This document shows positions 32,227 to 50,966 of a DNA stretch of 64,000 bases, in pieces. A model generated the notes under the pieces. The model was given only the letters and a program-made list of their open reading frames with translations, had not been told where the DNA came from and ran no database searches. Position numbers and translations under genes: made by a program. Origin of the DNA: an uncultured Candidatus Saccharibacteria bacterium (lineage in GTDB: Bacteria > Patescibacteriota > Minisyncoccia > Phycocordibacterales > CAIZLB01); contig CAZVIP010000001.1 in the NCBI GenBank assembly GCA_964627085.1, forward strand, positions 3,654-67,653, in the 5' to 3' direction. Positions within the stretch are counted from its first letter, which is position 1. Each line of letters begins with the position of its first letter.

Positions 32227-32892
32227 TTAGCTTTGGTTAGTTGCGATTCCTGGGCTCGCTCCATATACCAAATAGCCGACCTCGTCCAGACCCCACGGAC
32301 TACTCCAATTTCCAAGTGGACTCACGAGCCCAATTCGATTTGGATACTTCGGATCAAACATTGGCACAGCCCATGTGCCGGAGGCTAACTTATGCAGTGA
32401 TCCAAGAGCAATTATCTTCCGTCCAGAATTCCGCACCACCTCTGACTCAGGGCTCTTCAAATATGCATACAGCATCTCAAAAGTTGCCAGCTTATATTTC
32501 ATTGACCTCAAGGTGTAATACCTTTGCTTCCGACTTCCATCTTCAAAAACAACCCACCACAATTCACGACCGTCGAGACCTGGATGAAACCCTCGTAAAA
32601 TATCATACGCGCTTTCATTAAAAATATAATCCATCGGTCCAACTGAGTCATACAAAGTATTTAGTGAATATAGTTCACCTACTTCAAATGATTTGACCTC
32701 AAGTGAGTCCAGTCGTCTGGGTAATTTCATCTTTCCAGGTATAAGCTTACCATCTTCAAGGAATCTATTTTTATTCACGACGTAAGTGATGTTTGTGACC
32801 GTTTCATCCACTTTGCGTGCATATGGCAACCAATCAGGATCACTGGCCACGATTTCAGCAAATTTAGGAATTAGTATTTTGGTTTTATTCAT
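32227..32892 (-). CDS. Hypothetical protein (partner gene of TrmB-like paralog 1)
   Basis: Long ORF. Start placed at MNKTKILIPKF. No recognisable family. Confidence 0.5.
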   Translation of the reverse strand: MNKTKILIPKFAEIVASDPDWLPYARKVDETVTNITYVVNKNRFLEDGKLIPGKMKLPRRLDSLEVKSFEVGELYSLNTLYDSVGPMDYIFNESAYDILRGFHPGLDGRELWWVVFEDGSRKQRYYTLRSMKYKLATFEMLYAYLKSPESEVVRNSGRKIIALGSLHKLASGTWAVPMFDPKYPNRIGLVSPLGNWSSPWGLDEVGYLVYGASPGIATNQS

Positions 32893-33096
32893 AGCATTTT
32901 TGTTTGTGTATTCTAAAGGAGCATCAAGGTGACAAGGGTAGCAAATGTCTATATGCAGCCATATTTTATTGATCTTTCGCAATCTACCCGGTGACAAGTT
33001 TTGTCAGGCTTTGATTGTGATAAATTAACACCTTTCTCCGAAAAAAATATAGGACGAACGCACACATACGTCAAAGTGTTGACACATATTGACAAC

Positions 33097-33855
33097 ATGT
33101 ATACCATATCAGTCATGGAACTCCTAACGGAAAAAGAAAAACAAATACTGGCCTCTTTATACAAAAATGGCTCAAGTCCAATTAGTAAAATCGCTAAGGA
33201 TACCCTCATAAATAGAACAGCCCTCTATCACACCTTTGATCTATTAATTAAAAAAGGGTTAATCAACAAAAGCATTCGGGAGAACACTTCATACTTTGCA
33301 CCCCTACCACTACCTGAATTTAGAGAATGGCTCAAAAAGCAAAAAAGCCAACTAGAAAAAGAAACCGACTCACTAAGTCAGTGGTCAAAAAATGTTAAGC
33401 AAAACTCGGGCGACAACCTTCAGACCGAAATCAAATACTATTCGGGTATTGAGGGGATGGAATATCTATATGCGGATGGCCTCAGGGATAATCCAGGAAA
33501 AGAAATCCTAGCCATTACAGACTACGATAAAGCTTATACAGAATTTAAAGGCTTCTTTGAGAATGAATATTTCCCTACCCGCGTAAAAAAAGGTATCCAT
33601 GTAAAAAGCATCGTGTCCGAAGATTCACCAGCAGGTAAAAAAGATATATCGAGAAAACAAGATCTTCTACGTCAAATGAAATTTGCAAACATATTCAAAG
33701 ATTTAGGCATCGAGCTCAACATATACAATGACAAGGTCTCTATCATTTCTCTTGATAAAAAGAACCCGACCGGCATCATCCTTAAAAACAAAATCATAAA
33801 CAATGCCTTTAGAGAGATCTTTAATTTTATTTGGAAGAATTCAAAAAGTAGGTAA
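33097..33855 (+). CDS. TrmB-like winged-HTH transcriptional regulator, paralog 1
   Basis: N-terminal TrmB-type HTH (EKQILASLYKNGSSPISKIAKDTLINRTALYHTFDLLIKKGLI). C-terminal domain shared with the five paralogs below. Hairpin terminator at 33880-33925. Confidence 0.7.
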   Translation: MYTISVMELLTEKEKQILASLYKNGSSPISKIAKDTLINRTALYHTFDLLIKKGLINKSIRENTSYFAPLPLPEFREWLKKQKSQLEKETDSLSQWSKNVKQNSGDNLQTEIKYYSGIEGMEYLYADGLRDNPGKEILAITDYDKAYTEFKGFFENEYFPTRVKKGIHVKSIVSEDSPAGKKDISRKQDLLRQMKFANIFKDLGIELNIYNDKVSIISLDKKNPTGIILKNKIINNAFREIFNFIWKNSKSR

Positions 33856-33952
33856 AAAGTAGGCAAATTTGCTCAATCCAGACGTTATAATACCCGCCCA
33901 AATTGCTCGGGGCGGGTATTTGATTTGTGTCGGTGCTGTTGCACCGATGATT

Positions 33953-34387
33953 TTAGCGCGCGAACCGGGCAAGCCGGTTGCGTCGGGCGTTTGCCTGGCG
34001 CGCGGTGTGGAAGGTGACAAACATCACACCAACAGCTAAAACGTCAAAGAGAAAGACGGTGCCTAACATTGCCTTGTGCACGATATTGGCATAACTGCCA
34101 TTACCATGCAGTTGGACTGACTTGCGAACCATCTCCCCGACACAGCCGGTGAAAAAAGTTGCAGCCAAGACTGAGAAGCATGTTAGGAGAAAGTCAACCT
34201 CCTGCCGATTGAACATCGGCACTTTCGGCTGACTTGCTTTCAACTCTGCCTCATAGACGGCGCGGTCTTCTGCTACTCGGCGAGCAATCTCTGCGGGAGA
34301 GAGAAACTTTACACGGATCTTGACGGTCTGCTTTTTAAGGGTGTCGCCTGAATTTTTTGGCCGTGATTGGTCATCGAACTGATTCAT
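33953..34387 (-). CDS. Hypothetical membrane protein, high-GC (foreign-looking) gene
   Basis: 144 aa. Soluble N-terminal region followed by two predicted TM helices. Local GC is about 55-60% against about 38% in neighbours. Confidence 0.5.
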   Translation of the reverse strand: MNQFDDQSRPKNSGDTLKKQTVKIRVKFLSPAEIARRVAEDRAVYEAELKASQPKVPMFNRQEVDFLLTCFSVLAATFFTGCVGEMVRKSVQLHGNGSYANIVHKAMLGTVFLFDVLAVGVMFVTFHTARQANARRNRLARFAR

Positions 34388-34602
34388 GGGATTTTCTGGG
34401 TTGTGGCCTTTTGGGCCGGGTTGGTGGATTTGTTGTTGGTTCGCTACGTCCCACGGTGACAGTTTGTCAGAGTGATAGAAACGGTAAGATGGAAAGAATA
34501 TCCTTGTATATTATACTACTTTTGGTGGTTTTGTCAATGTTTTGTCCTCCCTTGTCCCCTTAAGACCTAGAATTACCTGCAATACCCGGCCAGAAGCCAG
34601 AC

Positions 34603-35619
34603 CTACTGCAAGATATTATAAATCCCATCATTGATTTTCTGTTCCTCACCAAAGGCTTGTTTTCGAGCTTCTTTGTAGAGCATATACATGGCTACAATTT
34701 GTGCATAGCTTTTGGCCTGCTGGACGAGTTGATCAGCGTATGTTTTCGCCATATCCCCTGTCATTTTTCCGAGGAGTTCATTTTGGGCCAAAGCGCCAAC
34801 ACCTATACTCACCGCACCCACAATTGCAGTTGTTGTCGCAGACACAATACTTCCAACTGCATCAGTTCCGAGATTGAGGATGAGTGCCTTTTTGAATGCT
34901 TCAGTTTTTGAGACTTCATTGAGCGCATTCATTTCTGTGACCACAATCAGGAACACATCGCGAGGCATAGCCTGGAGAGTCACGTGATCAAGGAAAATAA
35001 ACCAAGAGTATCTTGTCTTGATTCTTACATAGTATGAAAGCACCAAAATTACTGCGAGCAATACTACAAAATATCCGATGACTATAGGTAGCACCATATT
35101 TGAAGCGATACTAAATGATCCAATAATATTTACCGTACTCATAACTGGATCCAAAGATAATATAGTCGCACCTTTTGTAAATACAAAAATAATTGATGCA
35201 ATAAATAGCAAAACTAGAAGTTGAATGAGGAGCTGATATTTAAAAAACATTCTCACACGAAAATGTATCGTTTGCTTAAATAGCTTTTTTGAAATCTTTG
35301 AGCTCTGGTCTGGAGTGAGCTCTCTTTTATCAAAAAATGAATCAATCCAAATATTTTTCTCTGTCTCAAACACAAATGTAAAAAACCAAGAATAAATTAG
35401 AGCGAAAATAACATAGGTCACCGCAACATAGATATACGGCGCAGAGAGTAAGAGTGAAGTAAAAGCTTCTTTGCCCATAGCCTGTACACCCAAATACCCA
35501 ATACCGATTGCAAGTAGTGCTGGCCAGACAATAATAAAAGTCCTCCACATCAATGTCTTTTTTCGCAAATTAAGTTGCGCACCAATGGTCGAGATAATCT
35601 CTTTATATGTTGTATTCAT
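34603..35619 (-). CDS. Hypothetical polytopic membrane protein
   Basis: 338 aa with at least six hydrophobic helices and a C-terminal amphipathic segment. Co-oriented downstream of the helicase gene. Confidence 0.55.
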   Translation of the reverse strand: MNTTYKEIISTIGAQLNLRKKTLMWRTFIIVWPALLAIGIGYLGVQAMGKEAFTSLLLSAPYIYVAVTYVIFALIYSWFFTFVFETEKNIWIDSFFDKRELTPDQSSKISKKLFKQTIHFRVRMFFKYQLLIQLLVLLFIASIIFVFTKGATILSLDPVMSTVNIIGSFSIASNMVLPIVIGYFVVLLAVILVLSYYVRIKTRYSWFIFLDHVTLQAMPRDVFLIVVTEMNALNEVSKTEAFKKALILNLGTDAVGSIVSATTTAIVGAVSIGVGALAQNELLGKMTGDMAKTYADQLVQQAKSYAQIVAMYMLYKEARKQAFGEEQKINDGIYNILQ

Positions 35620-35826
35620 GCATTAAATTATCTCGTGAAATTGTGCGGGGTGCAAATGTTAAAACCCTCCTACACCATTTCTGATGCGGGAGGGGTCTTT
35701 GAGTTTATGGATAACTCAATCTTCAAATCTGGCTTTAATACCTGATCTTTAGAAACCTGTGGAGATACCACTATGTGGTGTAACGAGACACCTTGTTGGA
35801 ACAATTAATGTTGAATCAATTGCTTG

Positions 35827-38157
35827 TTACTTTTTCTTGCCAAGGAACTTGGGCCACCCTGGGAAGTTAGCATAATATACGGCAGGTGCACTCGGAAGAC
35901 GCGGGTCTTCTTTGTATCTCTTCTTATATTCTTCCACCGTCCTAATTCCCAATGCAATCACAGCTTTCGATGCTTTTCGCCATGTTGCATAGTAATCCTT
36001 TTTGGTTCCTCCGAGAAATATAGGCCAGCCGGGCCAATCTAAGGGGTAGACAAGATGGGGATTACTTGGAAGACGCGGATCTTCTGTGTACCGTTTAATA
36101 TAATCAATTTTACCTTCAATCCCTTTGGCAATCGCAGCTTTGCTTGCTTCTTCACATGTGCCATAGAAGCTCTTTGTCAAACCTCCAAAGAACACAGTGT
36201 AGCCTGGCCAGTCAGAGTAGTAGACATCAGGAGTGCTTGGAAGACGAGGATCTTCTTTGCACCTATTTTTATATTCTCTCATACTTTCAATCCCTTTTGC
36301 TACCACAGCTTTCGAAGCTTCTTGCCATGTTCCATAGAAATCTTTTTTGGACCCACCAAAGAACACAGTATAGCCAGGAAAGTCTGAGTAGTAGGTATGG
36401 GGAGTACTTGGAAGACGAGGATCTTCTTTGCACCTTGAAGTATATTCTTTACAATTCCTGATCCCTGATGCAATCACTGCTTTCGAAGCTTCTTGCCATG
36501 TTCCATAGAAGCTTTTTGCAGAGCCTCCGAGAAATACACGCCAGCAAGGAAAATCTGAGTAGTACCTATCAGGTGCACTTGGAAGACGCGGATCTTCTGT
36601 GTACCGTTTAATATAATCTATTTTACCTTCAATCCCTTTAGCAATCGCGGCTTTGCTTGCTTCTGCACAGGTCTCATAGAAATTCTTCGCAGAACCCCCG
36701 AGAAACACCGTATAGCCTGGGAAGTCAGTATAATAAACATGAGGCGCACTCGGAAGACGAGAATCTTCTCTGTGTCTAGACCTATAGTCTCTCAGATTTT
36801 CAATTCCCATCGCAATCGCCGCCTCACTCGCTTCTGCACAAGTACCATAGAAGTTCTTCTTCAAAGAAGCGTAGAACTCGATGAGCTCCAGCGCCTCTTT
36901 TTCAAAAGTATACGTGATACCCTCGAACTTAATTACGAGAGTTTTCTTATGCTGAATTTTCTGTGAACTACTAAGTGCAGCACCAAAGGTTTGAAACAAG
37001 CTATCTAGCTTTTGCCTATTATGAGCAAAGTCCAGAACAGTGAGTTTCTTTTTACCCTTAGTAGCCAAACGAAGTCCACGACCTACTTGCTGAATCCAGG
37101 CATTTTTGAATCCATGGGCACGTAAGAGCACAACAAGATCAACGGCCGGAATATCAACCCCTTCGTTAAGTGCGTCAACCGCGGCGATATACCGAAGCTG
37201 ACCAGACTTAAATGCTTCAAGAGTTTCTTCATTCCGTTTCCTTATCCTACTCATACTTTTCGTCCCATCGGTTGAACCCGAGTGAAGCGCTTTGCAGCTA
37301 GGCATGAGTTCCGCAATCAGGTTCGCATGGGCAATATTTCTGCAGAATACCAAACCGTGTGTGCATGTATGCTCGAGGATTTTGTTGACAAACTCTTGCT
37401 CCTGCTCTCTGACCAAGACTTCATGTTTTATTTCATCTGGATCATGTTGACTCCTGACGCGGTCTTTCTCCGCCTCTATCTTTCCTTTGAGAGCGTCATC
37501 AAATGTGCCCCCAACAAAATGATAGTCAACATGAGGGAACAACCCTCTTTTGAGTGCGGTTTCACCATCGAGCAGATACGACTCTTCACCAAAGAGGTCT
37601 TTGATGTTGCGACGATCTGCTCTATCTGGAGTTGCAGTCATGCCAAGTTTATATGCCACAAAATGCTCGAGGGTTGGTCTATAGGTATCCGCTTGGCTCC
37701 AATGGGATTCATCCACTGTCACCACGTCGAAATACTTTTTATCCCATCGATACAAGTTTTTACCCATGGTCTGCCATGTAGCAAAGACAAACCGAGCTTG
37801 GTGTGCCTTCTTCTTTGAACTCTGTCCATTATACGAGGCCATGGAAACGGTATTGCCAAAGAAAGCTTTAAACGCCTTCATTGCCTGCACCAGGATGTAG
37901 TTGTTGTGCACGAGGAATAGCACTCTACCCGTCTCACCTTTTGACAGATAATCCAGTAGTGCCTGAACAATATGCATGGATGTAATGGTCTTTCCGAGGC
38001 CTGTGCCCATAACTAGCAAGGCCTGGTGTTTCTTGATTAGATCACTTAAGCAGGCTTCTACGGCCTCTGTTTGGTATGGACGTAGTGTGATTTTATTTTT
38101 TGGATTTGTTTGTTTTGCTAGTTTCGGTGTTTTTGTTGATTTTGTTGTTTTTTTCAT
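35827..38157 (-). CDS. Superfamily-2 (ResIII/DEAD-like) helicase with six C-terminal 57-aa tandem repeats of the integrase-type repeat unit
   Basis: Motifs I (GTGLGKT), II (VDESHW), III (MTATP) and VI (QQVGRGLR). The C-terminal 345 aa are six repeats of F[YW]xTxxEASKAxIAxGIxxxxEYxxRxKEDPRLPSxPxxxYxDFPGWxxFLGG. Confidence 0.85.
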   Translation of the reverse strand: MKKTTKSTKTPKLAKQTNPKNKITLRPYQTEAVEACLSDLIKKHQALLVMGTGLGKTITSMHIVQALLDYLSKGETGRVLFLVHNNYILVQAMKAFKAFFGNTVSMASYNGQSSKKKAHQARFVFATWQTMGKNLYRWDKKYFDVVTVDESHWSQADTYRPTLEHFVAYKLGMTATPDRADRRNIKDLFGEESYLLDGETALKRGLFPHVDYHFVGGTFDDALKGKIEAEKDRVRSQHDPDEIKHEVLVREQEQEFVNKILEHTCTHGLVFCRNIAHANLIAELMPSCKALHSGSTDGTKSMSRIRKRNEETLEAFKSGQLRYIAAVDALNEGVDIPAVDLVVLLRAHGFKNAWIQQVGRGLRLATKGKKKLTVLDFAHNRQKLDSLFQTFGAALSSSQKIQHKKTLVIKFEGITYTFEKEALELIEFYASLKKNFYGTCAEASEAAIAMGIENLRDYRSRHREDSRLPSAPHVYYTDFPGYTVFLGGSAKNFYETCAEASKAAIAKGIEGKIDYIKRYTEDPRLPSAPDRYYSDFPCWRVFLGGSAKSFYGTWQEASKAVIASGIRNCKEYTSRCKEDPRLPSTPHTYYSDFPGYTVFFGGSKKDFYGTWQEASKAVVAKGIESMREYKNRCKEDPRLPSTPDVYYSDWPGYTVFFGGLTKSFYGTCEEASKAAIAKGIEGKIDYIKRYTEDPRLPSNPHLVYPLDWPGWPIFLGGTKKDYYATWRKASKAVIALGIRTVEEYKKRYKEDPRLPSAPAVYYANFPGWPKFLGKKK
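35830..36870 (-). repeat. Intragenic tandem repeat array (6 x 171 bp) encoding the helicase C-terminal repeats; units 2 and 5 near-identical at DNA level
   Basis: About 95-nt near-identical segments at 36061-36160 and 36572-36672 (cttggaagacgcggatcttctgtgtaccgtttaatataatc...), 3 units apart. Confidence 0.85.
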
Positions 38158-38461
38158 ACTGATTTTCTAGGTTTCTGAGTTTTTGTTGTTTCTGGTTAGA
38201 CACGAAGCAGTTCAATGTCAAAGAACTTTGCCTCCTTTTATTCAATTGGTACCAACCAACTGAATTTAGAGACAACAATAGAATAACTGTGTCAATAGTA
38301 TATTCAAACATCATAAATGCTGTTTTGCATTCAGGGACTATATATAAGGCTATTGCGGATATCTTTATTTTTGTCAAAAATATTGACTAAATTTAGATTG
38401 AGTATAAAATAGGGTAAAAGGCGCAAAAACACGGAAATTTGATCAAAAATTCACCTAGAAT

Positions 38462-39211
38462 ATGCAAACAACATCAAAACCACTGGAACAAACCCTTAAA
38501 AATATAGGTTTTGAGGATAAAGAGGCGAAAATATACCTCGCCCTACTTCAACTTGGACCTAGTGATGCAAAGGCAATTAGTGGAAAGTCAGGAATCAAAA
38601 AACCAACCACATATGTCATTTTGGAGAGTCTACGTCAGAAAAATGCGGTGCTCTTTCTCCCTAATGCCAAAAAGAAATTATTTGCAGCCAAAAAACCTGA
38701 TGAAATATTTGAGGAAGCAAATAAGCGTATACATTCTGCATTTAGCCAACTCCCCCTTCTGAATGCACTCTCTCGAAACTCCAAGGAAAAAGCTATGGTC
38801 ACCTATTATGAAGGAAAGGCTGGCTACGCACAGGCTATGCAATATAAACAAGATGAGGTTATACGAATAGGTGAACTCCCTTGTTATTTTGCAGCTGCAT
38901 TTAATATTGACCCGGATATCCTGGTTGCTGTGGACAAATACATGAGTCACCTCAAGAAAAACAAAGTGCACTTACGTGGTTTTGCACCAGAACATGAAAC
39001 TATTCACTTTTATCAATCAAAAGATCCTGAATTCTTGAGCGATATCAAAATTCTTCCTTATGAGGTGTATAGCGGTAGATCATCAATTGAGATTAGCGAA
39101 ACCTTTGTGAGATTCACTTTATTTGAAGAGCAGATGTTCGTAATCATAGACAACACTGAAATTGCAAAAATCATGAAGCAGATCTTCGAAATGAATTGGA
39201 GGGCGTATTAA
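38462..39211 (+). CDS. TrmB-like winged-HTH transcriptional regulator, paralog 2
   Basis: EAKIYLALLQLGPSDAKAISGKSGIKKPTTYVILESLRQKNAV HTH. Divergent from the helicase gene. Confidence 0.7.
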   Translation: MQTTSKPLEQTLKNIGFEDKEAKIYLALLQLGPSDAKAISGKSGIKKPTTYVILESLRQKNAVLFLPNAKKKLFAAKKPDEIFEEANKRIHSAFSQLPLLNALSRNSKEKAMVTYYEGKAGYAQAMQYKQDEVIRIGELPCYFAAAFNIDPDILVAVDKYMSHLKKNKVHLRGFAPEHETIHFYQSKDPEFLSDIKILPYEVYSGRSSIEISETFVRFTLFEEQMFVIIDNTEIAKIMKQIFEMNWRAY

Positions 39212-39257
39212 ATAACCACACTTAGTATTCCAGATAAAACTGTAAAGTGTAAAAACT

Positions 39258-40016
39258 TTAAGCGAGCATACTCACTCCCACAATCGCCGCAGTCTCTGCT
39301 CTTAAAACAAATTGCCCGAGTGCAAGTGGTGTGATATTTTCTTTCATAAATAATTCAATCTCTTCATCTGTCCATCCGCCTTCTGGGCCTATAAATATTG
39401 CTTTGTTCTTTGTTTCTTTTAAATCTACTTTAATATTTTCATTTGAAATGTGACCGAAGAATACTGCATTATTTGTTTTCTTTGCGAGAACAATTGCATC
39501 TTTGAGTTCTATGATTTCACCAATGACAGGTATATCCATTCGTCCGCTCTGCTCACTTGCTTCTATTGCAAGTTTATTTAGACGCTCGAAATTAAGGCCT
39601 GACTTCACTGTTCGCTCTGTCATAACCGGGATAATTGATGTGACACCAAGTTCAGTTGCCTTTTCTACAACTAGATCAAAATTACTATTTTTAATAATTG
39701 CCATATAAAGTGTGGTGTGTGTTCGGGGTAAATTACCAAGCTCAGTTGAAGCCGCTCTGTCTTGTTCTACCCATGTAAGCACAGCACCTTTTTTGCGCTC
39801 AAGAGAAATAAATTCTGCAAGCCACTCTCCTATTTTTTCATTATAAATAAGCACCCTGTCGCCTTTGCTCATTCTAAAAATATCTCTCCACTGATGGATG
39901 AGTTGTTCTTCACGTCCATGTCCCTCACTATTAATACCTGTTGTTTCAAAGCCAATACGAAATTCAGCCCCAACCTCTGGTGAAAAATCCGCCAAATAAA
40001 ATCGATGTAGTCGCAT
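39258..40016 (-). CDS. rsmE: 16S rRNA (uracil1498-N3)-methyltransferase RsmE
   Basis: MRLHRFY N-terminus, PUA-like N-terminal domain, IGPEGGWTDEE and RAETA SPOUT motifs. Confidence 0.88.
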   Translation of the reverse strand: MRLHRFYLADFSPEVGAEFRIGFETTGINSEGHGREEQLIHQWRDIFRMSKGDRVLIYNEKIGEWLAEFISLERKKGAVLTWVEQDRAASTELGNLPRTHTTLYMAIIKNSNFDLVVEKATELGVTSIIPVMTERTVKSGLNFERLNKLAIEASEQSGRMDIPVIGEIIELKDAIVLAKKTNNAVFFGHISNENIKVDLKETKNKAIFIGPEGGWTDEEIELFMKENITPLALGQFVLRAETAAIVGVSMLA

Positions 40017-40068
40017 ATGTCACTATCATGCAGGATTTGGCGATGAATTGCAAAAGTTAATAACAAAT

Positions 40069-40914
40069 CTATTTATCCAGTTTTGCATTCCATGACAACT
40101 CAAAAATCATTTTCATTAGCCCGTGTATTGTTTTGTCTTCGATTATTACACCAGTGAAATTATCATCTTCGAGATTCACTATTGAGACCTTGTTCTCGCC
40201 GTATATTGTTATTTCTGCGTTATACGCAAAGATACCTGCTGGGACGAATTTCATCAATGGTATAATCGACTCCTTAAAACCGTCATAGTTTCGCGCGGTA
40301 AAACCCTTATCACTTTCTGTCTCTGGGACAATTGCTCTAGTTGCAATACCCATACGTTCTTTTTCTCTGCGATATTTTTTAAAAAAATTGTCGGGAAGGG
40401 CTTGCTCGAGCTTTGTCGCATTTGCCCAAGCGAGCATTTCATATGCAACTTCAACTTGAATATGATCTTCATATACATTGATAACCCCGTCTATTCCTTG
40501 ATAATAAGTTACTTTCGGCCTCTCTGTTTTATGCATCAAATCTTGAATAATCGGCAGGATGGTTTGTGCTTGATTGATTTCATCTTGAATAAGGGACAGC
40601 TTTGACTTTGTATACTTGAGTAGCTTGGACGGGTTCTCTAGCTGATAAAATAGTTTATTCTTTTTTTCCACCTCATTTACAACCCCCTTTACCGACATTT
40701 GGAGCAATAACGAATACACAGTACCCCTCTTAATGCCCGTGTATTCAGCAATCTTTGATGGAAAGGCCCCTCCAAGTTCCAATAAAGCCAGATAAATCAG
40801 TGATTCCTTCTCATTTAAACCAGATTTTTGAAGTTTTTTAAGCAGGATCTCATTCTTGATTTTCATGATTAAATTATAATTTTTTAGGTTACTTTTGTCA
40901 ATTTGTTCTGACAA
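40069..40914 (-). CDS. TrmB-like winged-HTH transcriptional regulator, paralog 3
   Basis: EKESLIYLALLELGGAFPSKIAEYTGIKRGTVYSLLLQMSVKGVV HTH. Shared C-terminal domain ending FELSW. Confidence 0.7.
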   Translation of the reverse strand: MSEQIDKSNLKNYNLIMKIKNEILLKKLQKSGLNEKESLIYLALLELGGAFPSKIAEYTGIKRGTVYSLLLQMSVKGVVNEVEKKNKLFYQLENPSKLLKYTKSKLSLIQDEINQAQTILPIIQDLMHKTERPKVTYYQGIDGVINVYEDHIQVEVAYEMLAWANATKLEQALPDNFFKKYRREKERMGIATRAIVPETESDKGFTARNYDGFKESIIPLMKFVPAGIFAYNAEITIYGENKVSIVNLEDDNFTGVIIEDKTIHGLMKMIFELSWNAKLDK

Positions 40915-41059
40915 AAATATATTTATTCAATAATATTGTTTATATAAGCCATATTATGGATTCTTATTGATATTCTTGCACAATACTATTTACAATACTG
41001 TATATTTGTTGCAGAAAAGAACAAGCCGTTCTTTCCACAACCAAAAACCCAAAATCAGT

Positions 41060-41710
41060 ATGAAAAAGAAAAGATTGCTAGATGACAATAGCTTTGGACC
41101 AGAGATCAGCTCTAATGTAATCCCTGGCCAGATCCGGAAAACCACAGATCCAGATCAAATACATATTGATCACGGAGAGGATTATCGACCACCTACCCGT
41201 GATATACGTGCTGTATCTTTCTTTGTATGGATCCATAAAATGATCAATGCAAGGAAACTGACAGAAAACACAAGCCTCAGGCGGAAGCTCCTGGACGGAA
41301 GAAGGCTCGCAAGCTACTTTGACGGACTGCAAGAAGATGAGGTGTATGAAAAATTCCTTCAACTACACCACTTTGCCAACGATTTATCAGATAGCTCAGT
41401 GGATGAGGAGCGGTTTAAAGCGCTGAAAAACTTTGCTTGCTCGGCATTTAAAGATCTGTCACAAACCAGACACCCAGATGCGATGCATGTCTTTCGCAAA
41501 ATACAATCCAAGACGTTCTGCGAAGAAAATCTGTTTGTATGGCTTGAAGAGGCAAGTTCGAAAACACATCGCAAAGGGGCTGCCACAGGAACAATTCACA
41601 TTAGTGACCTAAGTAAATTCACAGATATGCTGAATTGCGAGAGTGACCCACCCGAAACACCAGCAAGGTCACCTTACGAAGTCTGGCTACTGATAGCACC
41701 CGAACACTAA
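41060..41710 (+). CDS. Hypothetical protein (partner of TrmB-like paralog 3), moderately elevated GC
   Basis: Start at MKKKRLL. No known family. Divergent to paralog 3. Confidence 0.5.
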   Translation: MKKKRLLDDNSFGPEISSNVIPGQIRKTTDPDQIHIDHGEDYRPPTRDIRAVSFFVWIHKMINARKLTENTSLRRKLLDGRRLASYFDGLQEDEVYEKFLQLHHFANDLSDSSVDEERFKALKNFACSAFKDLSQTRHPDAMHVFRKIQSKTFCEENLFVWLEEASSKTHRKGAATGTIHISDLSKFTDMLNCESDPPETPARSPYEVWLLIAPEH

Positions 41711-41799
41711 AAGCTTATATCTTCGAACACCTCTTGTTGCATTCGTGCAGCAAGAGGTGTTTTACCTATACACAAAACAGAAGAAAATTGGTTTTGAGA

Positions 41800-42627
41800 T
41801 CAGAAAGAATTGTCAATTTTATTTGCACACATCCCCCAGGCAATATCAAAAACCATTTTTATCATACCGTAAAAAGCCTCATCTTCGATAACTACCCCTA
41901 TAATCTTCTTATCTTCATGTTGTTTTCCTAGTTTGAACATTGCTATTTTATTTTTTCCATACAACGTCATTTCGCTTGCCCAAGGAAAGATTTCCTTGTT
42001 GACTTTCCTGATCTGAGGAAAGTATCTTGTATTCTTCATAAAACCATATACGTTCTCGGCAAAAGAGTTTCCGTACTTATCATCAGGGACAAGTGCGCGC
42101 ATGGTAATTTTTTGCGACAATTTACCTTTTGTAAACTCAGATTGCTCCTGTTTAGAAAGATACCCATCAAAAGCCTTTGCATTGAATATTGTGGACATCT
42201 CATAATTTTTATACCTGAGCATGTCAAAATATATTTCTTTGATTTCACTATATCCATTGAAAATGGATATTTTAGGCAATGCTCCGAAAGAAGAAAACAA
42301 CTCCGTAAGATGAGGAATAGCTTTTTTAATTCCGGCCATTTTTTTATTAAAATCTTTATGTTGATATTCGATATAACTCAATAGTTTTTCAGGTGAAGAT
42401 AATATGTAAAAAACTTTTTTATTTTTCTCTACATCAGAAACCAAACCTTTGATAGCAAGAGACGTGAGTGTCTTGTAGCATGTACTCCTGTTTATATGAG
42501 CCTCTTTAGCAATTGCTGAGGGAAAACCTTGTCCACCCAGCCTAAACAATGAGACGTAAACTATTTTTTCTTTGTCAGATAATCCCATATTCTCCATTTG
42601 TTGTACGAGATATTTGAGTGTTTGCAT
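41800..42627 (-). CDS. TrmB-like winged-HTH transcriptional regulator, paralog 4
   Basis: DKEKIVYVSLFRLGGQGFPSAIAKEAHINRSTCYKTLTSLAIKGLV HTH. C-terminus ends FDIAWGMC, as in paralog 5. Confidence 0.7.
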   Translation of the reverse strand: MQTLKYLVQQMENMGLSDKEKIVYVSLFRLGGQGFPSAIAKEAHINRSTCYKTLTSLAIKGLVSDVEKNKKVFYILSSPEKLLSYIEYQHKDFNKKMAGIKKAIPHLTELFSSFGALPKISIFNGYSEIKEIYFDMLRYKNYEMSTIFNAKAFDGYLSKQEQSEFTKGKLSQKITMRALVPDDKYGNSFAENVYGFMKNTRYFPQIRKVNKEIFPWASEMTLYGKNKIAMFKLGKQHEDKKIIGVVIEDEAFYGMIKMVFDIAWGMCANKIDNSF

Positions 42628-42834
42628 ATGTTTAATATACTACCATATTGTTCGTTTGTGCGAACAAGAATCTCTTATACATAGAATACCCTTATACATA
42701 AACATATAATCCATCAGTATTGTATGAATACAGTAACAGATTGTGTAATCCATGCTTATCTACACCTTGGATTGAGTCCACCTATCTACGACTAACTAGC
42801 AGTAGATATATAGTCACAACAAAATATACATATT

Positions 42835-43422
42835 ATGAACGTAAAAAAATACCCATCCCAAGAATCACTCAGCAACGCCCTGGCAGATATCAGTTCCATC
42901 TTCCCTATCCACATGGACACCAATACATCTTTTACCCATTGCAATCAAGGTTTAGTAGAGAAAAATCCTGCAGTATTGGTCCCAGTATTCAGTGGCTTGG
43001 CTCCCGAGACACCTCCCAATTGCCGGCCAGCTACCTTTGAGGAATTAATTGCCTTTAGCGAGGAGTGTGAATTCGAATCTGATGAAGACAGCGAGGAGAG
43101 CCCAGGTTCCCGACTTATTAAAGACACCGCAGGTATCATCCTTGCAACTGGAACAAAACTCTATAAGCTAGGTGAAAATATCGAAGGCTTATTCCCTTCA
43201 TTTATCCCCTTCTTCTACCCAAAAAGAAGCTGGAAATTCTGGGGTCGAGGCTATTCACCTAAATTCGAAAGGTCTTTCTCACTTTTACAAAACAGCGGAA
43301 GACTCAACATTCTTCAACTGATCGAAAGTTTGACTGACCCTAGAACATTAAAACACCCCACTTGGTTCAAGGATGATTCGGGTATAGACAGCATTCCAAG
43401 GGTGTTGTATATCAAAACATAG
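42835..43422 (+). CDS. Hypothetical protein (partner of TrmB-like paralog 4)
   Basis: 195 aa with no known family. Two hairpin terminators follow (about 43440-43495 and about 43505-43545). Confidence 0.5.
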   Translation: MNVKKYPSQESLSNALADISSIFPIHMDTNTSFTHCNQGLVEKNPAVLVPVFSGLAPETPPNCRPATFEELIAFSEECEFESDEDSEESPGSRLIKDTAGIILATGTKLYKLGENIEGLFPSFIPFFYPKRSWKFWGRGYSPKFERSFSLLQNSGRLNILQLIESLTDPRTLKHPTWFKDDSGIDSIPRVLYIKT

Positions 43423-43679
43423 TGTTTTCTTGCCCTCCTATTTATTTGATATATACAAGTGTTGATATCAAATAAAATGGGAGGGCTTTATCTTTTTCAC
43501 ACTAATCAACGACCCAAGCGAAAGCTGGTGGGTCTTTTTTTGTTAACATAATATTTATCAATTGCTGACATAGATCGTGCAATCCACACAAATAAATCGG
43601 CCCAACCTAATATATCCGACTGCAACACTCGAAGAAGATATGAGTAGAAAAAATATTTAATGCTAAAATCAAATTAACC

Positions 43680-44016
43680 ATAGGACGTTTGATGCTTGAA
43701 CCTCCGATTTGGTTTCTAGCGCTGAAGCCACCAGGTTATCTTTTTTCCATGGTCTAGTCAGAGAAAAAAGGTTCTTGACCACCAATCTTGAGCCCAAAAA
43801 AGCGCCTCACCCGACGTTAGAGGGTCTGAAATTGTAATGCGGACCCGCTCTAGTTAATGTAAGCAACCCACCCTTCTGTAGTTATCTACTAAACAAGCAT
43901 CTGAATAAGGAAGCCAGTGGACTTACATTAACTAGGCGGGACGCTTTAGGACTCAAATTTGCACATTGTTTTGAACATAATTCATTCCAGACCGGACCTT
44001 TGTTCGGTCTTTTTTA
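43680..44016 (+). ncRNA. Candidate structured non-coding RNA (about 330 nt) of unknown class, ending in an intrinsic terminator
   Basis: No ORF of 60 aa or more across 650 bp. Extended -10 element (TGcTAAAAT) near 43660-43672. A 13-bp perfect long-range helix (tagttaatgtaag / cttacattaacta) is nested in a longer stem. Terminator hairpin agaccgg...cggtct plus T6 at 43989-44016. Confidence 0.3.
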
Positions 44017-44068
44017 TAAGGTCACAAACTGTGACCTTAGTGAAAACTTAGGAGTTAATCACAATGAA

Positions 44069-44833
44069 TTAAACACACATCCCCCAGGCAAACAAAAACA
44101 CCTGCTTGAACATATTTGAAATTGTTGGTGATGTGATAGTTACCGCATATACATGACCGTCTTTGAGTGAAAAAAGAGCCACACGCTCATCTGCAATAAT
44201 CATTGTCGAATGAAACATATGCTGTGCAGGTAAAAATCTAACCTCGCGGAACTGGTCATTTGTATATGCAGACAGACCAAGATCCTTTGCAAAATCAGGT
44301 GCGAGTAGATGTGTGAAAATTTTAAGCTTGTTTTTTCGAGCGAGCACAGCTGGCAGATACTTTGGGAAATATTCCAATAACTCCGGATGTGAAATTGTAT
44401 ATAAATTTCGATCGTCCCGAGTTTCAAGCATGTCATATAGACCCCCGATAATATCTTTTATCGAATCTTTTCCTTCATAAAACCTTACTTCTGGCTGTGG
44501 CCCAGACTTTTGCATCATAGATTCCAACTCTGGAAATATCTCTTTTATCTTTTCTGCCTTTTGCTCTGCACTTTTGACGAGACGCCTCGGATGCTCTGCA
44601 AACCAATATGCGACCTGATTTTTCTTAAAAATACCCACCAAATTAAGCTTTTTGAGTCTTTCGAGGTCATTGTAAACAGTAGTTCTTGGGAAATTGACCT
44701 GTTTTGAGATTTGAAAAACAGTCTGATCCTTATTAGCGAGGAGATATAGATAAATAGCAATCTCACGTTCATTGAGGCCAAATTCGAGTAGATTTTGGGT
44801 TAAAGAGTCTTGTGTCATAAATATGGACAACAA
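44069..44833 (-). CDS. TrmB-like winged-HTH transcriptional regulator, paralog 5
   Basis: EREIAIYLYLLANKDQTVFQISKQVNFPRTTVYNDLERLKKLNLV HTH. C-terminus FLFAWGMCV. Confidence 0.7.
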   Translation of the reverse strand: MLSIFMTQDSLTQNLLEFGLNEREIAIYLYLLANKDQTVFQISKQVNFPRTTVYNDLERLKKLNLVGIFKKNQVAYWFAEHPRRLVKSAEQKAEKIKEIFPELESMMQKSGPQPEVRFYEGKDSIKDIIGGLYDMLETRDDRNLYTISHPELLEYFPKYLPAVLARKNKLKIFTHLLAPDFAKDLGLSAYTNDQFREVRFLPAQHMFHSTMIIADERVALFSLKDGHVYAVTITSPTISNMFKQVFLFAWGMCV

Positions 44834-44901
44834 TAGTATATATAATATATGGCTATGTGTAAAGCTATTCGTGTGTTTATATTTCTAGACTGCCATTTTT
44901 T

Positions 44902-45468
44902 ATGACACATATTGACTATAGTAGTATTCTATTGTGTAGAACAAATCCGTTCTTCACAAACAACAAAAACACAACAAATAGAAATCAAGACAATATGACT
45001 CACTCAAAATTACTCGCCAGCATGCTTTTCGCTGAAAAAGACTATGTGATGGGAATTTACTGTAAGGGTAAGTTTTACATTCATTGGAATTTCGAAGCCA
45101 GTACAACTCAGCCATTAACAGGCACTCTTCCAGACGGTAAAACTTGGACATCTGAACCCCTAGGGGAATTGCACTCGTCCGTGTCTTTGTTGCATGAATA
45201 TGCAGACAAAGAATTCAGAATGGCAACTATCAGAAAAAAGGACTTGCTAGCCGATGGGACTCTGGTTAAGGTAGACCTCTATTTCGATGCAATCCTTGAT
45301 ACAGCGGGTTTAAGTGACAACGACAAACATTTTGCTGAAATCCCAAAGGAAGTTTTGACTCTGCTAGACGAAGGAAAGGATCCCTGCGTTGAAGAGTGCG
45401 GGAGTAGTATCAACACCGTGCTCATCCCCTTCGACTTTACCAACGTGGTCTTAATTGGCTACGAATAA
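44902..45468 (+). CDS. Hypothetical protein (partner of TrmB-like paralog 5)
   Basis: ORF with no known family. The true start may be the internal ATG near 45000 (MTHSKLL). Hairpin terminator at 45480-45525. Confidence 0.5.
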   Translation: MTHIDYSSILLCRTNPFFTNNKNTTNRNQDNMTHSKLLASMLFAEKDYVMGIYCKGKFYIHWNFEASTTQPLTGTLPDGKTWTSEPLGELHSSVSLLHEYADKEFRMATIRKKDLLADGTLVKVDLYFDAILDTAGLSDNDKHFAEIPKEVLTLLDEGKDPCVEECGSSINTVLIPFDFTNVVLIGYE

Positions 45469-45610
45469 ATGCGAAGGGTCACCAAAGTAACAAACATAGC
45501 CATCCGCATTCAAGCGGATGGCTATTTCTTTTATTAAAAACCCAGACTTGGTCCTCAGTCGTTATGATTATCAATCTTGCAAACCCCTCATTTTCCCTTA
45601 TAATCAAGCC

Positions 45611-46183
45611 ATGTTAATACCAACAGTAATCGAAAAATCACAATTCGGGGAGCGAGCATATGATATATACTCTCGCCTACTTCGAGAAAATATTATTTTC
45701 CTAGGAGGACCAATTGATGACAATGTCGCGAATATTGTCATTGCGCAACTTCTCTTTCTCCAATCTGAAAATCCAAAAAAAGACATCAGTCTCTATATCA
45801 ACTCACCTGGAGGATCTGCTTCTGCAACCCTTGCAATGATTGATACGATTAATCATATCAAGAATGATGTATCTACCATTTGTATCGGCATGGCAGCTTC
45901 TGGAGGCGCATGGCTTCTCTCAGCGGGCACAAAAGGCAAGAGATATGCTCTTGCAAACTCTGAGGTTATGATTCACCAACCACTCGGTGGTGCAGAAGGT
46001 CAGGCTACAGATATCGAGATTACTGCCAAGCACATCGTTGGGCTCCGCAAGCGACTTGCTGAAATTATGGCAAAGAATACTGGCCAGAAGTTTGAAAAAG
46101 TTCAGCAGGATCTAGAGCGAGACTTCTTTATGTCTGCAGATGAGGCAAAGAAATACGGTATCATCGATAAAGTCCTCAGCTAG
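45611..46183 (+). CDS. clpP: ATP-dependent Clp protease proteolytic subunit ClpP
   Basis: NSPGGSASA (Ser), MIHQP (His) and D catalytic triad context. Start at MLIPTVIE. Terminator at 46236-46265. Confidence 0.92.
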
Positions 46184-46305
46184 TTTATAGTTTTGTTTAT
46201 TTTGACAATTTGAGCTTTACACACAAAACAAAAACCACCAGCACAGGTGGTTTTTGTTTTTCTTCATGCTTCCAAAGAAATATTGATTCTTTACATATTT
46301 TTTTA

Positions 46306-48297: not shown

Positions 48298-48975
48298 TTA
48301 TTATTGTGCTAAGAAGTAAAGAATCAATATTCTTTGGGACGTAGAGTGATAATAACACAATTGTCCTTTATACAAAATTAATCTGTTGATAAGTGTCCTT
48401 TATTGTTTGTTTCTTGCAAGAAATTCAAGCATTGATAAAAGACATTATACGGAGTTTATGTTTGTTCTTTATTTTTAAGAGCTCACACACAAAGTGTTTT
48501 CATTTATTTTTTTGTGATTTTCTTTATCTGTTTTTCATCACAGAAAATGTATTAAATATTTTTTATTGTGTACTCATCTTTTACGTAATGCATTTTGTGC
48601 TATGTATTTGGTACTATTTACAAAACACAAATATGTATTCTTATGTTTTTGCCAAAACTGCCCTGCGAGAGAATTTCTCTATTGTATTGAATATGATTTG
48701 AATTATCTGGATATTGTACAACTGATAAATTTGATACATCAGTTGTAGGGCTATAAATATGACTATATTCAAGTGCTCTGTATTCTATTTATATTTACAG
48801 ATACATGTTTACTCATTTTCTTTCGCAAAATAATTTTAACTGTTGATTTATAAAGCTTTTTTTAACTAACCCAAGAATCCATTGCATCTCATTGCTTGAA
48901 AATACGGCTTAATATATAATTATTGCGTAACCCGTTCCGGTCGAATTACAAGCAATCAAACCGAACATAAATAAT

Positions 48976-49248
48976 ATGAACAAAGCAGCACTCGTAGACA
49001 AAGTACACGAAGCACTAGGATCAACAAAGGTTCAGGCTGAATCTATTGTTGACTTGATTTTCGATACAATCACAGGGTCTTTGAAAAAAGGCAATGAAGT
49101 ATCAGTAGCAGGCTTCGGTATCTTCTCTGCAAAGCAGCGAGCCGCTCGTTCAGCTCGAAACCCTCGAACTGGCGAAATGGTAAAGGTTGCAGCTATGAAG
49201 GTTCCAAAGTTCAGAGCCGCTAAGGCTTTGAAGGACGCAGTTAAATAA
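48976..49248 (+). CDS. hup: DNA-binding protein HU
   Basis: 90 aa. MNKAALVDKV...GFGIFSAKQRAARSARNPRTGE...VPKFRAAKALKDAV. Terminator hairpin at 49318-49358. Confidence 0.93.
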   Translation: MNKAALVDKVHEALGSTKVQAESIVDLIFDTITGSLKKGNEVSVAGFGIFSAKQRAARSARNPRTGEMVKVAAMKVPKFRAAKALKDAVK

Positions 49249-49565
49249 TCTGCAATCACCTTCCTATCACCAATTTTGGTGATTTTAGAGAATATGCTCG
49301 CGGTTAGCGACAATCATTCTCAACAAAAAAACTCCGACACCACTCGGAGTTTTTTTGTTTTTTGTAAGCAATATTACTTACCCCGAACTCCCTACAGACA
49401 AAGATACTCTTGGTGTTGATTTGTAATGAAATTGATAAGGAAATAAGGAGGGTCTAAAAGCGGAGGTAAAGTAAAAACACCCAGAGCTCCGAGGAGATAG
49501 GTGTTGGTTGAAAGTTTTAAGAGAATTGAACTCTACGGTTGCTTCACCGGGTGGGTTTACCACCA

Positions 49566-49928
49566 TTAACCACAATCGTAGGCAGCTTTGATTGTATGGA
49601 TTTCATCCCAGCCTAAACCAGGAACTTCGACGATTTTCTTCCAGACGCGCCAGTAGTTCATCATTTTACCGAGTTGGATACGTTCGTCGTAACCAAGCTT
49701 AGCGATCCGAGGTTCAAGAAAGTCTGCCACGGCCTGACTAGTTAGGTATCCTGCTCCACCAAACAAAATGAGTTCATCATCTGTCATGTGACGAAGCAAG
49801 CCTTTAAGTAAAGGTAGGTCTTCGTCTGCGAACTGACGTTTACCACTCACTTTGGCGATTGTGACTAGCTCTGCCACAAGAGTTTTTGCTGCAACTGCAA
49901 TTCTGTCCTTACTTTCCGGTGTATTCAT
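49566..49928 (-). CDS. Hypothetical protein (partner of TrmB-like paralog 6), elevated GC
   Basis: 120 aa with no known family. About 47% GC. Confidence 0.5.
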   Translation of the reverse strand: MNTPESKDRIAVAAKTLVAELVTIAKVSGKRQFADEDLPLLKGLLRHMTDDELILFGGAGYLTSQAVADFLEPRIAKLGYDERIQLGKMMNYWRVWKKIVEVPGLGWDEIHTIKAAYDCG

Positions 49929-50141
49929 ATTTTTTCAAGGTTAAGTGTAGTAAAAGGATTTAATCCGCTTGGCGATTGCCAGCAGGTCGACTATCTCCTT
50001 TCTCCTACACTCAACTTTGGCACCCTTCAATGAACTTGACTTTCTGGTATAAGTATAGCCTAATAATGGTATTTAGTCAATACCTATTGACTACCAAATT
50101 TTTGACCTTTACAGTATATAAATAAAAGCTAAAATTAATGC

Positions 50142-50912
50142 ATGTCAAAAATCTTTGACCAAAATACCACTAATACTGTGAAGGAGCTTTGCACCTTAGG
50201 CCTAACTGAGAAGGAGGCTTTGGTGTATCTAGCTCTTTTACCCCGTCGCGACACAGGCTCTTCCAAGCTGGTACTTGCCACCGGATTACACAAGCAGTTT
50301 GTCTACAATGCCTTAGGAAAGCTGGAGGGACTAGGTCTCGCAAAGCACGTAATTCAGAACGGGCGCAAGAAGTTCAGCGCCAACACCCCTCAACGCATCG
50401 TGAGTCTGATTGAGGAGAAAAGGGTCGCGGCAGGACGCCTAGCAGCAGAACTTCAGAAAAAATATATCGGAGCACATGATCAGGATGCAGAAATATTTCA
50501 GGGTGATAACGCTTTTGTCATGCACCAAATGAACAACATCGAGAGAGCACCTGAAGGAGCTACGCTATGTGTTATAGCAAGTGCGTCAGAACGCTATGGC
50601 GCAATTTTGCGTGAGCACGACCTTTGGGATGAATTTGAACGAATCCGAAAATCAAAAAATATTGCTATAAAATACCTGGGTTCGGAATCTCAACTTGAAA
50701 CCCTCAAAAGCAGAATGAGTGATGAAAAACCTTGGGAATATCGTATTCTTCCTGGCCACGCAACAGGACTCATGAATACTGACATTTGGGATGACCATGT
50801 AACATTCAATATATTTGGTGAACCGGTCCTTTCCATAACTATTACAGGTAAAGAAATCACCGATGGTTATCGACAATTTTTTGACACACTTTGGAAACTA
50901 GGGAGAATTTAA
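50142..50912 (+). CDS. TrmB-like winged-HTH transcriptional regulator, paralog 6 (elevated GC)
   Basis: EKEALVYLALLPRRDTGSSKLVLATGLHKQFVYNALGKLEGLGLA HTH. C-terminus FFDTLWKLG. Confidence 0.7.
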   Translation: MSKIFDQNTTNTVKELCTLGLTEKEALVYLALLPRRDTGSSKLVLATGLHKQFVYNALGKLEGLGLAKHVIQNGRKKFSANTPQRIVSLIEEKRVAAGRLAAELQKKYIGAHDQDAEIFQGDNAFVMHQMNNIERAPEGATLCVIASASERYGAILREHDLWDEFERIRKSKNIAIKYLGSESQLETLKSRMSDEKPWEYRILPGHATGLMNTDIWDDHVTFNIFGEPVLSITITGKEITDGYRQFFDTLWKLGRI

Positions 50913-50966
50913 CTCAATGATTAGTATATAAAAAGACCAGGCATAACCTGATCTTTTTATATTTTG

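Follow-up and report, generated by a model that had tools for sequence, protein, structure and literature searches.

The window analyzed here, a 64,000-nucleotide stretch of contig CAZVIP010000001.1 (assembly GCA_964627085.1, positions 3,654–67,653, forward strand) from an uncultured Candidatus Saccharibacteria bacterium, encodes six diverged paralogs of the TrmB family between 33.1 and 50.9 kb. We call these paralogs reg1 to reg6. Each stands head-to-head with a different partner gene, namely par1, a helicase gene (the partner of reg2), par3, par4, par5, and par6. It is likely, in our view, that reg1–reg6 are paralogs of a TrmB branch that extends across the Patescibacteria, and that each is an autoregulated local repressor set beside a fast-changing neighbor gene. 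The TrmB family itself and the logic of divergent autoregulators are already known. What is new is a multicopy, clustered, TrmBL2-like branch that occurs across the candidate phyla radiation (CPR), along with its predicted operators and the replacement of partners beside a conserved cassette of regulator and control region.

Six paralogs with the architecture of TrmBL2

Six open reading frames (ORFs) of 249–284 amino acids, each opposite an oppositely oriented ORF, lie where an initial annotation of the window had placed six full-length paralogs and their head-to-head partners. With their most likely starts, the proteins are 246–275 amino acids in length: reg1 (33115–33855, plus strand, 246 amino acids), reg2 (38462–39211, plus, 249), reg3 (40069–40866, minus, 265), reg4 (41800–42627, minus, 275), reg5 (44069–44818, minus, 249), and reg6 (50142–50912, plus, 256). 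The ORF of reg1 can be extended to 33097 or 33001, and its most likely start is at 33115 (MELL); the most likely starts of reg5 and par5 are at 44818 (MTQ) and 44995, respectively, the ORF of par5 being open from 44902. With these corrected starts, the intergenic regions are therefore ~175–305 nucleotides long; they span 32893–33114, 38158–38461, 40867–41059, 42628–42834, 44819–44994, and 49929–50141. Independent database gene calls for the same strain give the same partners, and all six pairs are real.

A profile built from the six proteins and run against all ORFs of at least 50 amino acids in the window recovers reg1–reg6 alone (next match, E 0.36). The six align over their full length as one family, with E14, L21, Y44, G117, F242, and W246 invariant (reg1 numbering), and pairwise BLAST connects all of them across ~250 amino acids (reg3–reg4, E 4.7e-43; reg1–reg3, 7.5e-19; reg5–reg6, 2.6e-9). 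Of the C-terminal motif initially given as F(E/D)xxW, the F-x-x-x-W is shared by all six, while E or D follows the phenylalanine in only four. The paralogs are 22–31% identical to one another, versus 53–85% between reg1–reg5 and their orthologs in other genomes. The duplications are therefore older than the divergence of these genera, and the description of the six as clearly homologous but weakly similar, old paralogs is borne out.

The N-terminal portion of each protein is a TrmB-type winged helix-turn-helix (wHTH). The Pfam TrmB model (PF01978) matches reg2–reg6 at 31.7–51.4 bits (cut-off, 25.6) and reg1 at 25.5 bits, 0.1 below the cut-off; reg1 aligns with the other five. The assignment as TrmB-like and not WYL also holds, as the Pfam matches at E ≤ 0.1 include no WYL domain and the fold is TrmBL2-like. 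Proteins of the TrmB family combine the DNA-binding domain PF01978, with Tyr50 as the recognition residue (Y50 in Pfu TrmB and TrmBL2), and the effector domain PF11495 (PMC4158304), and such two-domain proteins are already known in 19 bacterial genera (PMC3031468). The recognition tyrosine is invariant in the six paralogs (Y44 of reg1), occurs in at least 90% of 45 family members, and lines up with the ...RVY or ...RTY of TrmB and TrmBL2.

The six-member profile aligns to the structure of TrmBL2 (TK0471/PF0496 of Thermococcales; PDB 5bpd, 5box, and 5bqt) over residues 14–260. A 45-member family profile aligns over residues 12–262 of 263 (E 2.3e-13), placing the family FxxxW opposite FNEYW of TrmBL2; with TrmB (3qph), only residues 7–150 are aligned. 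An AlphaFold2 model of reg5, made from an alignment of 20 orthologs, has a predicted local distance difference test score (pLDDT) of 86. In a Foldseek search with this model, TrmBL2 chains take the top eight places (E 2.7e-13 to 1.4e-11), with TrmB next (4e-10), and the C-terminal domain of the model also matches the PLD-fold protein F13. The paralogs are in the same length class as TrmBL2 (~250–275 versus 264 amino acids) and resemble it in the wHTH with its recognition tyrosine, a long helix, a truncated effector domain without a sugar-binding subdomain, and FxxxW (PMC4158304). However, reg1–reg6 are bacterial (CPR) proteins and only 18–20% identical to TrmBL2.

TrmBL2 lacks the C-terminal sugar-binding part of ~70 residues (PMC4158304). 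The paralogs stop where TrmBL2 stops, and the sugar-binding β-barrel subdomain (contact residues N305, G320, M321, V324, I325, and E326) is absent. TrmB and TrmBL1 (Tgr), archaeal sugar sensors for ATP-binding cassette (ABC) transporters and glycolysis, have a homologous DNA-binding domain and first effector subdomain but differ from reg1–reg6 by this β-barrel, which spans their C-terminal ~70–90 residues. The NCBIfam equivalog models of TrmB and TrmBL1 gave 15–44 bits, against cut-offs of 500–650. The shared C-terminal domain of ~170 amino acids is a truncated TrmB effector domain, consisting of its PLD-like first half, and, as judged from profiles and the predicted model, reg1–reg6 are TrmB-family members of the TrmBL2 architecture and not sugar-sensing TrmB. 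The proposal that they belong to an undescribed system fails in this respect: they are clear homologs of TrmB and TrmBL2, C-terminal domain and FxxxW included.

Relatives of the six were collected with subfamily alignments, the six-paralog alignment being too diverse for locus searches, and 18 genome loci and 5 metagenome loci were obtained (L numbers below). The organism itself is a CPR bacterium of the Paceibacteria type. The homologs were found in metagenome bins of Patescibacteria/Paceibacteria, and their annotation there goes no further than "helix-turn-helix domain-containing" or "TrmB." Among 105 homolog matches, 68 are nearest to reg1 (those listed at ~48–57% identity) and 30 to reg5; 26 of the latter are orthologs at 44–85% identity, with the strain's own copy additional. 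Orthologs of reg2 (L030, 57%), reg3 (L013, 62%; L016, 53%), and reg4 (L010, 66%; L015, 57%) also occur. The orthologs of reg1–reg5 lie mostly in the same neighborhood, which has the conserved order nusA – (ppa or DHH) – tig ... rsmE ... clpP – (rny) – hup and contains two to five TrmB-like genes; the HU gene of the window is at 48976–49248. The closest relative, L001 (~74% nucleotide identity), has only two TrmB-like genes in this neighborhood, and rsmE directly follows its reg5 ortholog. The window thus carries ~4 kb extra at that place (reg4 with par4, and reg3 with par3), in addition to a 4.3-kb helicase block.

The gene rsmE (39258–40016 in the window) begins 52 nucleotides downstream of reg3. 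The TrmB-like paralog that directly precedes it differs between genomes: in the window it is reg3, L001 has the reg5 ortholog in that position, and L013 and L015 have the reg1 ortholog. This shifting neighbor suggests repeated insertion or deletion of regulator–partner units at this point. At the other end of the cluster, tRNA-Gly(tcc) (50966–51037) starts 54 nucleotides past the reg6 stop codon and three further tRNAs lie within 3.6 kb; no integrase was seen by this tRNA cluster.

Divergent pairing and partner turnover

Divergent pairing is common to the family. Across all nonredundant fetched loci, 42 of 47 family genes (89%) have a divergent upstream neighbor versus 104 of 299 other genes (35%; Fisher p 1e-12), as counted with our own crude ORF calls in related genomes, which are not independent events. 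The proportion is 13 of 14 with database gene calls, and six of six in the window.

The partners in the window are par1 (32227–32892, minus strand, 221 amino acids), a superfamily 2 (SF2) helicase opposite reg2 (35827–38157, minus, 776; Pfam ResIII, Helicase_C, and six INT_rpt), par3 (41060–41710, plus, 216), par4 (42835–43422, plus, 195), par5 (44995–45468, plus, 157), and par6 (49566–49928, minus, 120). As initially annotated, they lack known families except for the helicase: par1 and par3–par6 have no match in Pfam, PADLOC, or PHROGs, and the helicase has only generic SF2 motor-domain matches in the latter two. Two membrane ORFs likewise have no PADLOC match. The suggestion that several partners have a GC content unlike that of the host holds as a mild shift (0.41–0.455 versus a window mean of 0.396), but the clear outlier (0.52) is ORF 33953–34387, which is not among the listed partners. 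Codon usage in the partners, par6 excepted, is at or under the bottom of the core-gene range. For a comparison of nonsynonymous and synonymous substitution (dN/dS) in the partners, the other contigs of the organism are at least 99.98% identical.

Clusters containing the window partners have 1–4 members among ~15 billion proteins, and the ORFan par4 is a cluster of one at 90% identity. Two homologs at 55–56% identity establish par1 as a real coding gene, and a remote homolog of it (E 2e-7) faces the reg1 ortholog of L020 as its divergent partner; a par1 model from a three-sequence alignment was unusable (pLDDT 33). For par3, eight remote homologs were found among 1.84 billion representatives (E 5e-6 to 7e-4). 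par3 thus belongs to a small uncharacterized family of ~160-amino acid proteins (P0125–P0132) with the core AFKDLS-x2-RNP-x-AM ... DGSAVIVLHVS; one has no adjacent TrmB gene, and a family member in L034 adjoins a DUF8370 protein. The window partners are real genes of very narrow distribution. We rejected the idea that they are decayed solute-binding proteins, as tblastn of Peripla_BP_6 partners against the window gave nothing below E 0.02. A phmmer comparison of the partners, those of the relatives included, at its most sensitive setting did not show them to be remote homologs of one another, except for par1 and the L020 partner, the two cupins, the binding proteins, and the L010/L015 pair; the similarity between par1 and par4 is not significant.

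Orthologous regulators in related genomes face unrelated partners and not always the same sugar-transport operon, and the layout of a regulator with a divergent, variable partner, proposed initially from the window, thus recurs outside it. The reg5 orthologs (44–85% identical) face eight unrelated genes: par5 and proteins of 166, 174, 222, 257, and 283 amino acids, all without a known family; a 311-amino acid protein that weakly matches TPR; and a complete operon of the NMT1 type in L026, comprising binding protein, ATPase, and permease. The slot between clpP and reg5 is syntenic in three genomes yet filled by unrelated proteins, among them one of 257 amino acids in L001 (own ORF call; 249 in the database call) and one of 222 in L030. 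Partners of reg1 orthologs are cupins (L005 and L006), Peripla_BP_6 proteins (L014, L016, and L017), par1-like proteins (the window and L020), and various ORFans. The upstream gene of the reg4 orthologs in L010 and L015 belongs to a family different from par4; in L010 it was not called adjacent, and a doubtful 92-amino acid ORF intervenes. Partners identified singly in relatives are a radical-SAM-like protein (a weak, subthreshold match), a metallo-β-lactamase-fold protein, a DUF3307 protein, and the weak TPR match just mentioned. Roughly half of the genes in the loci of these genomes are without a Pfam match, and what is noteworthy is therefore the turnover of the partners and not that they are of no known family.

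Peripla_BP_6 solute-binding proteins recur as partners in L014, L016, L017, and L019. Three to five such Peripla_BP_6/regulator pairs are arrayed in tandem in L014 (1–15100, with a BPD_transp_2 permease nearby), L016 (1700–9900), and L019 (14500–18700), and the regulator and binding protein seem to have been duplicated together in these arrays. Partners that are solute-binding proteins or ABC operons resemble the association of TrmB with the mal/TM operon, although the binding proteins here are of the Peripla_BP_6 and NMT1 families and not of the sugar type. By analogy, the solute-binding, ABC, and cupin partners recall the classic pairing of TrmB with transporters more than they recall BrxR/CapW.

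The likeness to BrxR/CapW had prompted the idea of defense-island modules, in which the regulators would control anti-phage or symbiosis cargo and the ORFan partners would be unrecognized defense or effector proteins. Partners do differ between orthologous loci and have atypical codon usage, the SF2 helicase has a motor like those of restriction enzymes and PbeA, the metallo-β-lactamase-fold partner in L014 is Apyc1-like, and genes for PemK-type toxins lie near the reg5 orthologs in L030 (8811–9209) and L031 (9433–9831), with none in the window. Searches of the partners against PADLOC and PHROGs nonetheless yielded no link of this type: par1 and par3–par6 match nothing in either, and the helicase match is generic. 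Viral contigs, for their part, contain no relatives of the reg1 or reg5 subfamily. Furthermore, identifiable partners are mostly transport or metabolic proteins, the region lies within housekeeping synteny with no integrase or transposase seen, and an absence of Pfam matches is shared by about half the genes of these genomes. BrxR and CapW are thus a functional analogy only, in having a local regulator beside variable cargo; their WYL domain is missing here, the fold is another one, and the cargo has no known defense match. We regard a defense role as very improbable.

The helicase is part of a 4.3-kb block (33953–38157) that also contains a 144-amino acid ORF (33953–34387, GC 0.52) and a 338-amino acid ORF (34603–35619). 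The latter appears by eye to be a multi-pass membrane protein and has no family match. These two ORFs and the helicase gene are absent in the relatives L001 and L030, and the block is probably a horizontally acquired insertion.

Control regions and predicted operators

The best σ70-like promoters found by a promoter scan between 32 and 51 kb are immediately upstream of the regulators: TTGACA-17-TATAAT for reg3, TTGACA-17-TACCAT for reg1, TTGACT-16-TAAAAT for reg2, TTTACA-17-TATACT for reg5, and TTTACA-16-TAAAAT for reg6. Several of the −10 boxes end 6–8 nucleotides before the ATG, from which we infer leaderless mRNAs, predicted for reg1, reg3, reg4, and reg6; the mRNA of reg3, with its −10 box ending 6 nucleotides before the ATG, is probably leaderless. 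The intergenic palindromes reported in the initial annotation exist, and for reg1–reg5 they are conserved with orthologs, each within its subfamily. The predicted operators are of the TGTCAA/TTGACA type for reg1, reg2, reg3, and reg6, an imperfect GTCA/GAC-type block for reg5, and TTGTTCG-N6-CGAACAA for reg4. We know of no published TGM/TrmB motif that resembles the half-sites TGTCA/TGACA or GTTCG/CGAAC.

The par1/reg1 intergenic region contains the palindrome TGACAAGTTTTGTCA (32992–33006), found by a palindrome scan, and a combined reg1 promoter and operator-like element (33066–33107, plus strand), in which GTCAAAGTGTTGACACATATTGACAAC is followed by the −10 box TACCAT. A 28-nucleotide reg1 consensus, TGTaAAa.TGTTGAcACAatTTGACAAC, is present in 17 of 17 genomes, at 25–35 nucleotides upstream of the ATG in most and up to 74 in L014. 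The palindrome GTCAAAAATATTGAC of reg2 (38373–38410, plus) overlaps the −35 box of its promoter, and the site is conserved as TCAAAAATATTGACTAAAT upstream of the 57%-identical ortholog in L030. In the reg3/par3 control region (40873–40913), the left arm of the palindrome TGTCAATTTGTTCTGACA is the −35 box of the perfect reg3 promoter; the element TTTTGTCAG-N6-ATTGACAAAA is common to L013, whose ortholog keeps TTTTGTTAGTAAAAATTGACAAAA. The reg4 palindrome TTGTTCG-N6-CGAACAA (42648–42667) has half-sites unlike those of the other paralogs and has been kept in front of the orthologs in L010 and L015 (GTGTTCGCACAAATGAACAA and TTGTTCGCTCAAAGTAACAA).

The bidirectional control region of reg5 and par5 (44814–44935) was delineated by aligning eight orthologous upstream regions and by the promoter scan. 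It holds the reg5 promoter (44863–44835), a TGTCC-N-TGAC over the reg5 start codon, and a par5 promoter, ATGACA-17-TATTCT (44902–44930), with the tandem repeat TGACACATATTGACT. In the eight genomes, GTCAA-N6-GTCAT-N6-8-GAC(A/T)GT lies over the partner promoter and TGTCC...TGAC over the start codon of the regulator. The reg6 control region (50074–50159) has a first palindrome, TAGTCAATACCTATTGACTA (50074–50093), of the form TAGTCAAT-N4-ATTGACTA, the reg6 promoter (50108–50135), and, across the start codon (50144–50159), a second palindrome, GTCAAAAATCTTTGAC. The left arm of the first palindrome supplies the −35 box of a par6 promoter, TTGACT-17-TATACT (50080–50052).

Palindromes of the GTCA/TGAC type number five in the 1,315 nucleotides of the six intergenic regions versus four in 7,546 nucleotides of intergenic DNA elsewhere (p 0.005). 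At the nucleotide level, homology to other genomes starts at the edge of the reg1 element (33066–33077 in six loci) and, at reg5, ends at 44840–44978, before the par5 ATG, with L001 reaching 44978. As homology stops at the edges of the control regions, the conserved unit is the regulator together with its control region.

Several points weigh against reading these elements as operators of local repressors. Window-wide, palindromes are not significantly enriched (21 versus a shuffled expectation of 16.3 ± 3.4). The arms TTGACA/TGTCAA equal the σ70 −35 consensus, and back-to-back −35 boxes of divergent promoters would give similar palindromes without a regulator. A 14-mer, TGACACATATTGAC, is nearly identical at the reg1 promoter (33080–33094) and the par5 promoter (44903–44917), and TGACA-N5-TGAC(A/T) direct repeats occur only at these two places in the 64 kb. 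The coincidence may point to reg1 and reg5 regulating one another's targets or to a promoter class common to both places, and fits one protein or promoter class as well as it fits paralog-specific operators. No close ortholog of reg6 was found among the fetched loci, and the orientation counts come from related genomes, as noted above. As for the proteins, the Pfam model Regulator_TrmB (PF11495) matches only reg5, at 16.8 bits versus a cut-off of 22.2, and the closest solved relative, TrmBL2, is an abundant, largely nonspecific chromatin protein and global repressor (PMC3031468, PMC4158304).

Taken furthest, such points would mean that regulators and partners are not functionally coupled at all: the regulators would be redundant or have their targets elsewhere, the divergent neighbors would be new ORFs gathered in a recombination-prone, gene-poor stretch, and the palindromes would be paired −35 boxes. 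The identity of the arms with the −35 consensus, the unrelated partners in close relatives, and the par3 homolog without a TrmB neighbor all agree with this. It leaves unexplained, however, that divergent pairing is far more frequent for the family than for other genes in many genomes, that conservation reaches into the spacer (TTGACAAC) and over start codons, more than −35 boxes require, that the GTTCG/CGAAC half-sites of reg4, which are not −35 boxes, are conserved in orthologs, and that in two lineages reg1 orthologs have a partner of the par1 family. The −35 boxes account for part of the symmetry, and the spacer element, the start-codon sites, and the reg4 arms exceed it. Uncoupled regulators therefore seem to us improbable.

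Two further features of the intergenic DNA lie outside these control regions. At 34457–34537, upstream of the 144-amino acid ORF, lies a perfect TTGACA-16-TATAAT promoter on the minus strand, and downstream of this promoter, at 34457, is the palindrome TGACAGTTTGTCA, which resembles TGACAAGTTTTGTCA at 32992 and might serve one of the regulators as an additional target. Between par4 and reg5, a stretch of 646 nucleotides (43423–44068) is free of ORFs, an unusual length for a genome this compact. Within it are hairpins at 43432–43486 and ~43510–43535, then an irregular hairpin of ~170 nucleotides with perfect 14-bp arms (CTAGTTAATGTAAG and CTTACATTAACTAG), followed by an intrinsic terminator (43989–44016, plus strand); the fold z-score is −3.8 on the plus and −4.5 on the minus strand. 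A pseudogene or known RNA was rejected, as the stretch has no protein remnant and no Rfam match and related loci match it neither in protein nor in DNA; it may be a noncoding RNA or an inverted repeat like a miniature inverted-repeat transposable element.

Mode of action and significance for the CPR

The observed homology, architecture, gene arrangement, conservation of cis elements, and partner turnover are compatible with the following mechanism. Dimers or tetramers of each paralog would use the wHTH to bind the palindrome or repeat specific to that paralog. As the predicted site overlaps the −35 box and spacer of the regulator's own promoter, which often would drive a leaderless regulator mRNA, binding would occlude this promoter and result in autorepression. 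Within a compact bidirectional region, the same binding event would also govern the promoter of the divergent partner, and relief of repression would lead to partner expression. The C-terminal PLD-like domain would serve in oligomerization and probably in sensing of a signal, perhaps through a response to a ligand. In evolutionary terms, the regulators arose by ancient duplications, with each regulator and its control region inherited as a unit in the nusA-tig...rsmE...clpP-hup neighborhood while the facing gene turns over quickly.

Because the best full-length match in both sequence and structure is to the chromatin protein TrmBL2 (PMC3031468, PMC4158304), a role in the nucleoid must be weighed against local repression. 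The paralogs would then coat DNA with low specificity and silence genes globally, as archaeal TrmBL2 does, and their neighbors would be irrelevant. The missing sugar-binding subdomain would suit such proteins, as would the small number of nucleoid proteins in CPR genomes, though HU is present in the window (48976–49248). Coating of this kind would not be expected to leave each subfamily with a differing conserved palindrome at its own promoter, nor does it account for the strong bias toward divergent pairing or for the tandem arrays of regulators and binding proteins in relatives, and it is a poor fit to six diverged paralogs with distinct conserved sites. These same differences from TrmBL2, the conserved palindromes and the divergent neighbors, suggest specific local regulation instead, and we hold a chromatin role to be improbable.

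Local repression by reg1–reg6 would have its closest parallel in layout among the divergent autoregulators of the MarR, TetR, and LysR types, which also have a palindrome over their own promoter in a shared intergenic region, with probable leaderless mRNAs for the regulators. These belong to other protein families, and what sets the present case apart is that the partner is replaced between close relatives while the regulator and control region persist. A bolder extension, which we offer as speculation and think rather unlikely, is that a TrmBL2-like regulator with its bidirectional promoter–operator is a stable "expression dock" in Paceibacteria. The gene on its far side would be replaced repeatedly (by ORFans, binding proteins with transporters, cupins, or a helicase), such that these symbionts with reduced genomes would have a dedicated, pre-wired switch for genes recently gained or born, perhaps including some involved in interaction with a host, and the tig–clpP cluster would be a hotspot of docks.

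The CPR, or Patescibacteria, make up a large share of bacterial diversity and have tiny genomes with few recognizable regulators. To our knowledge, almost nothing is known about gene control in these organisms, and a full-text literature search for TrmB together with CPR or Patescibacteria found no paper linking them. The defined, predicted protein–DNA pairs described here are testable entry points into gene regulation in the CPR. They also offer a bacterial comparison for an archaeal question: does TrmBL2 act as a chromatin protein or regulate specifically? Finally, the swapping of partners at a fixed regulatory dock, if true, would be a neat way of domesticating new genes.

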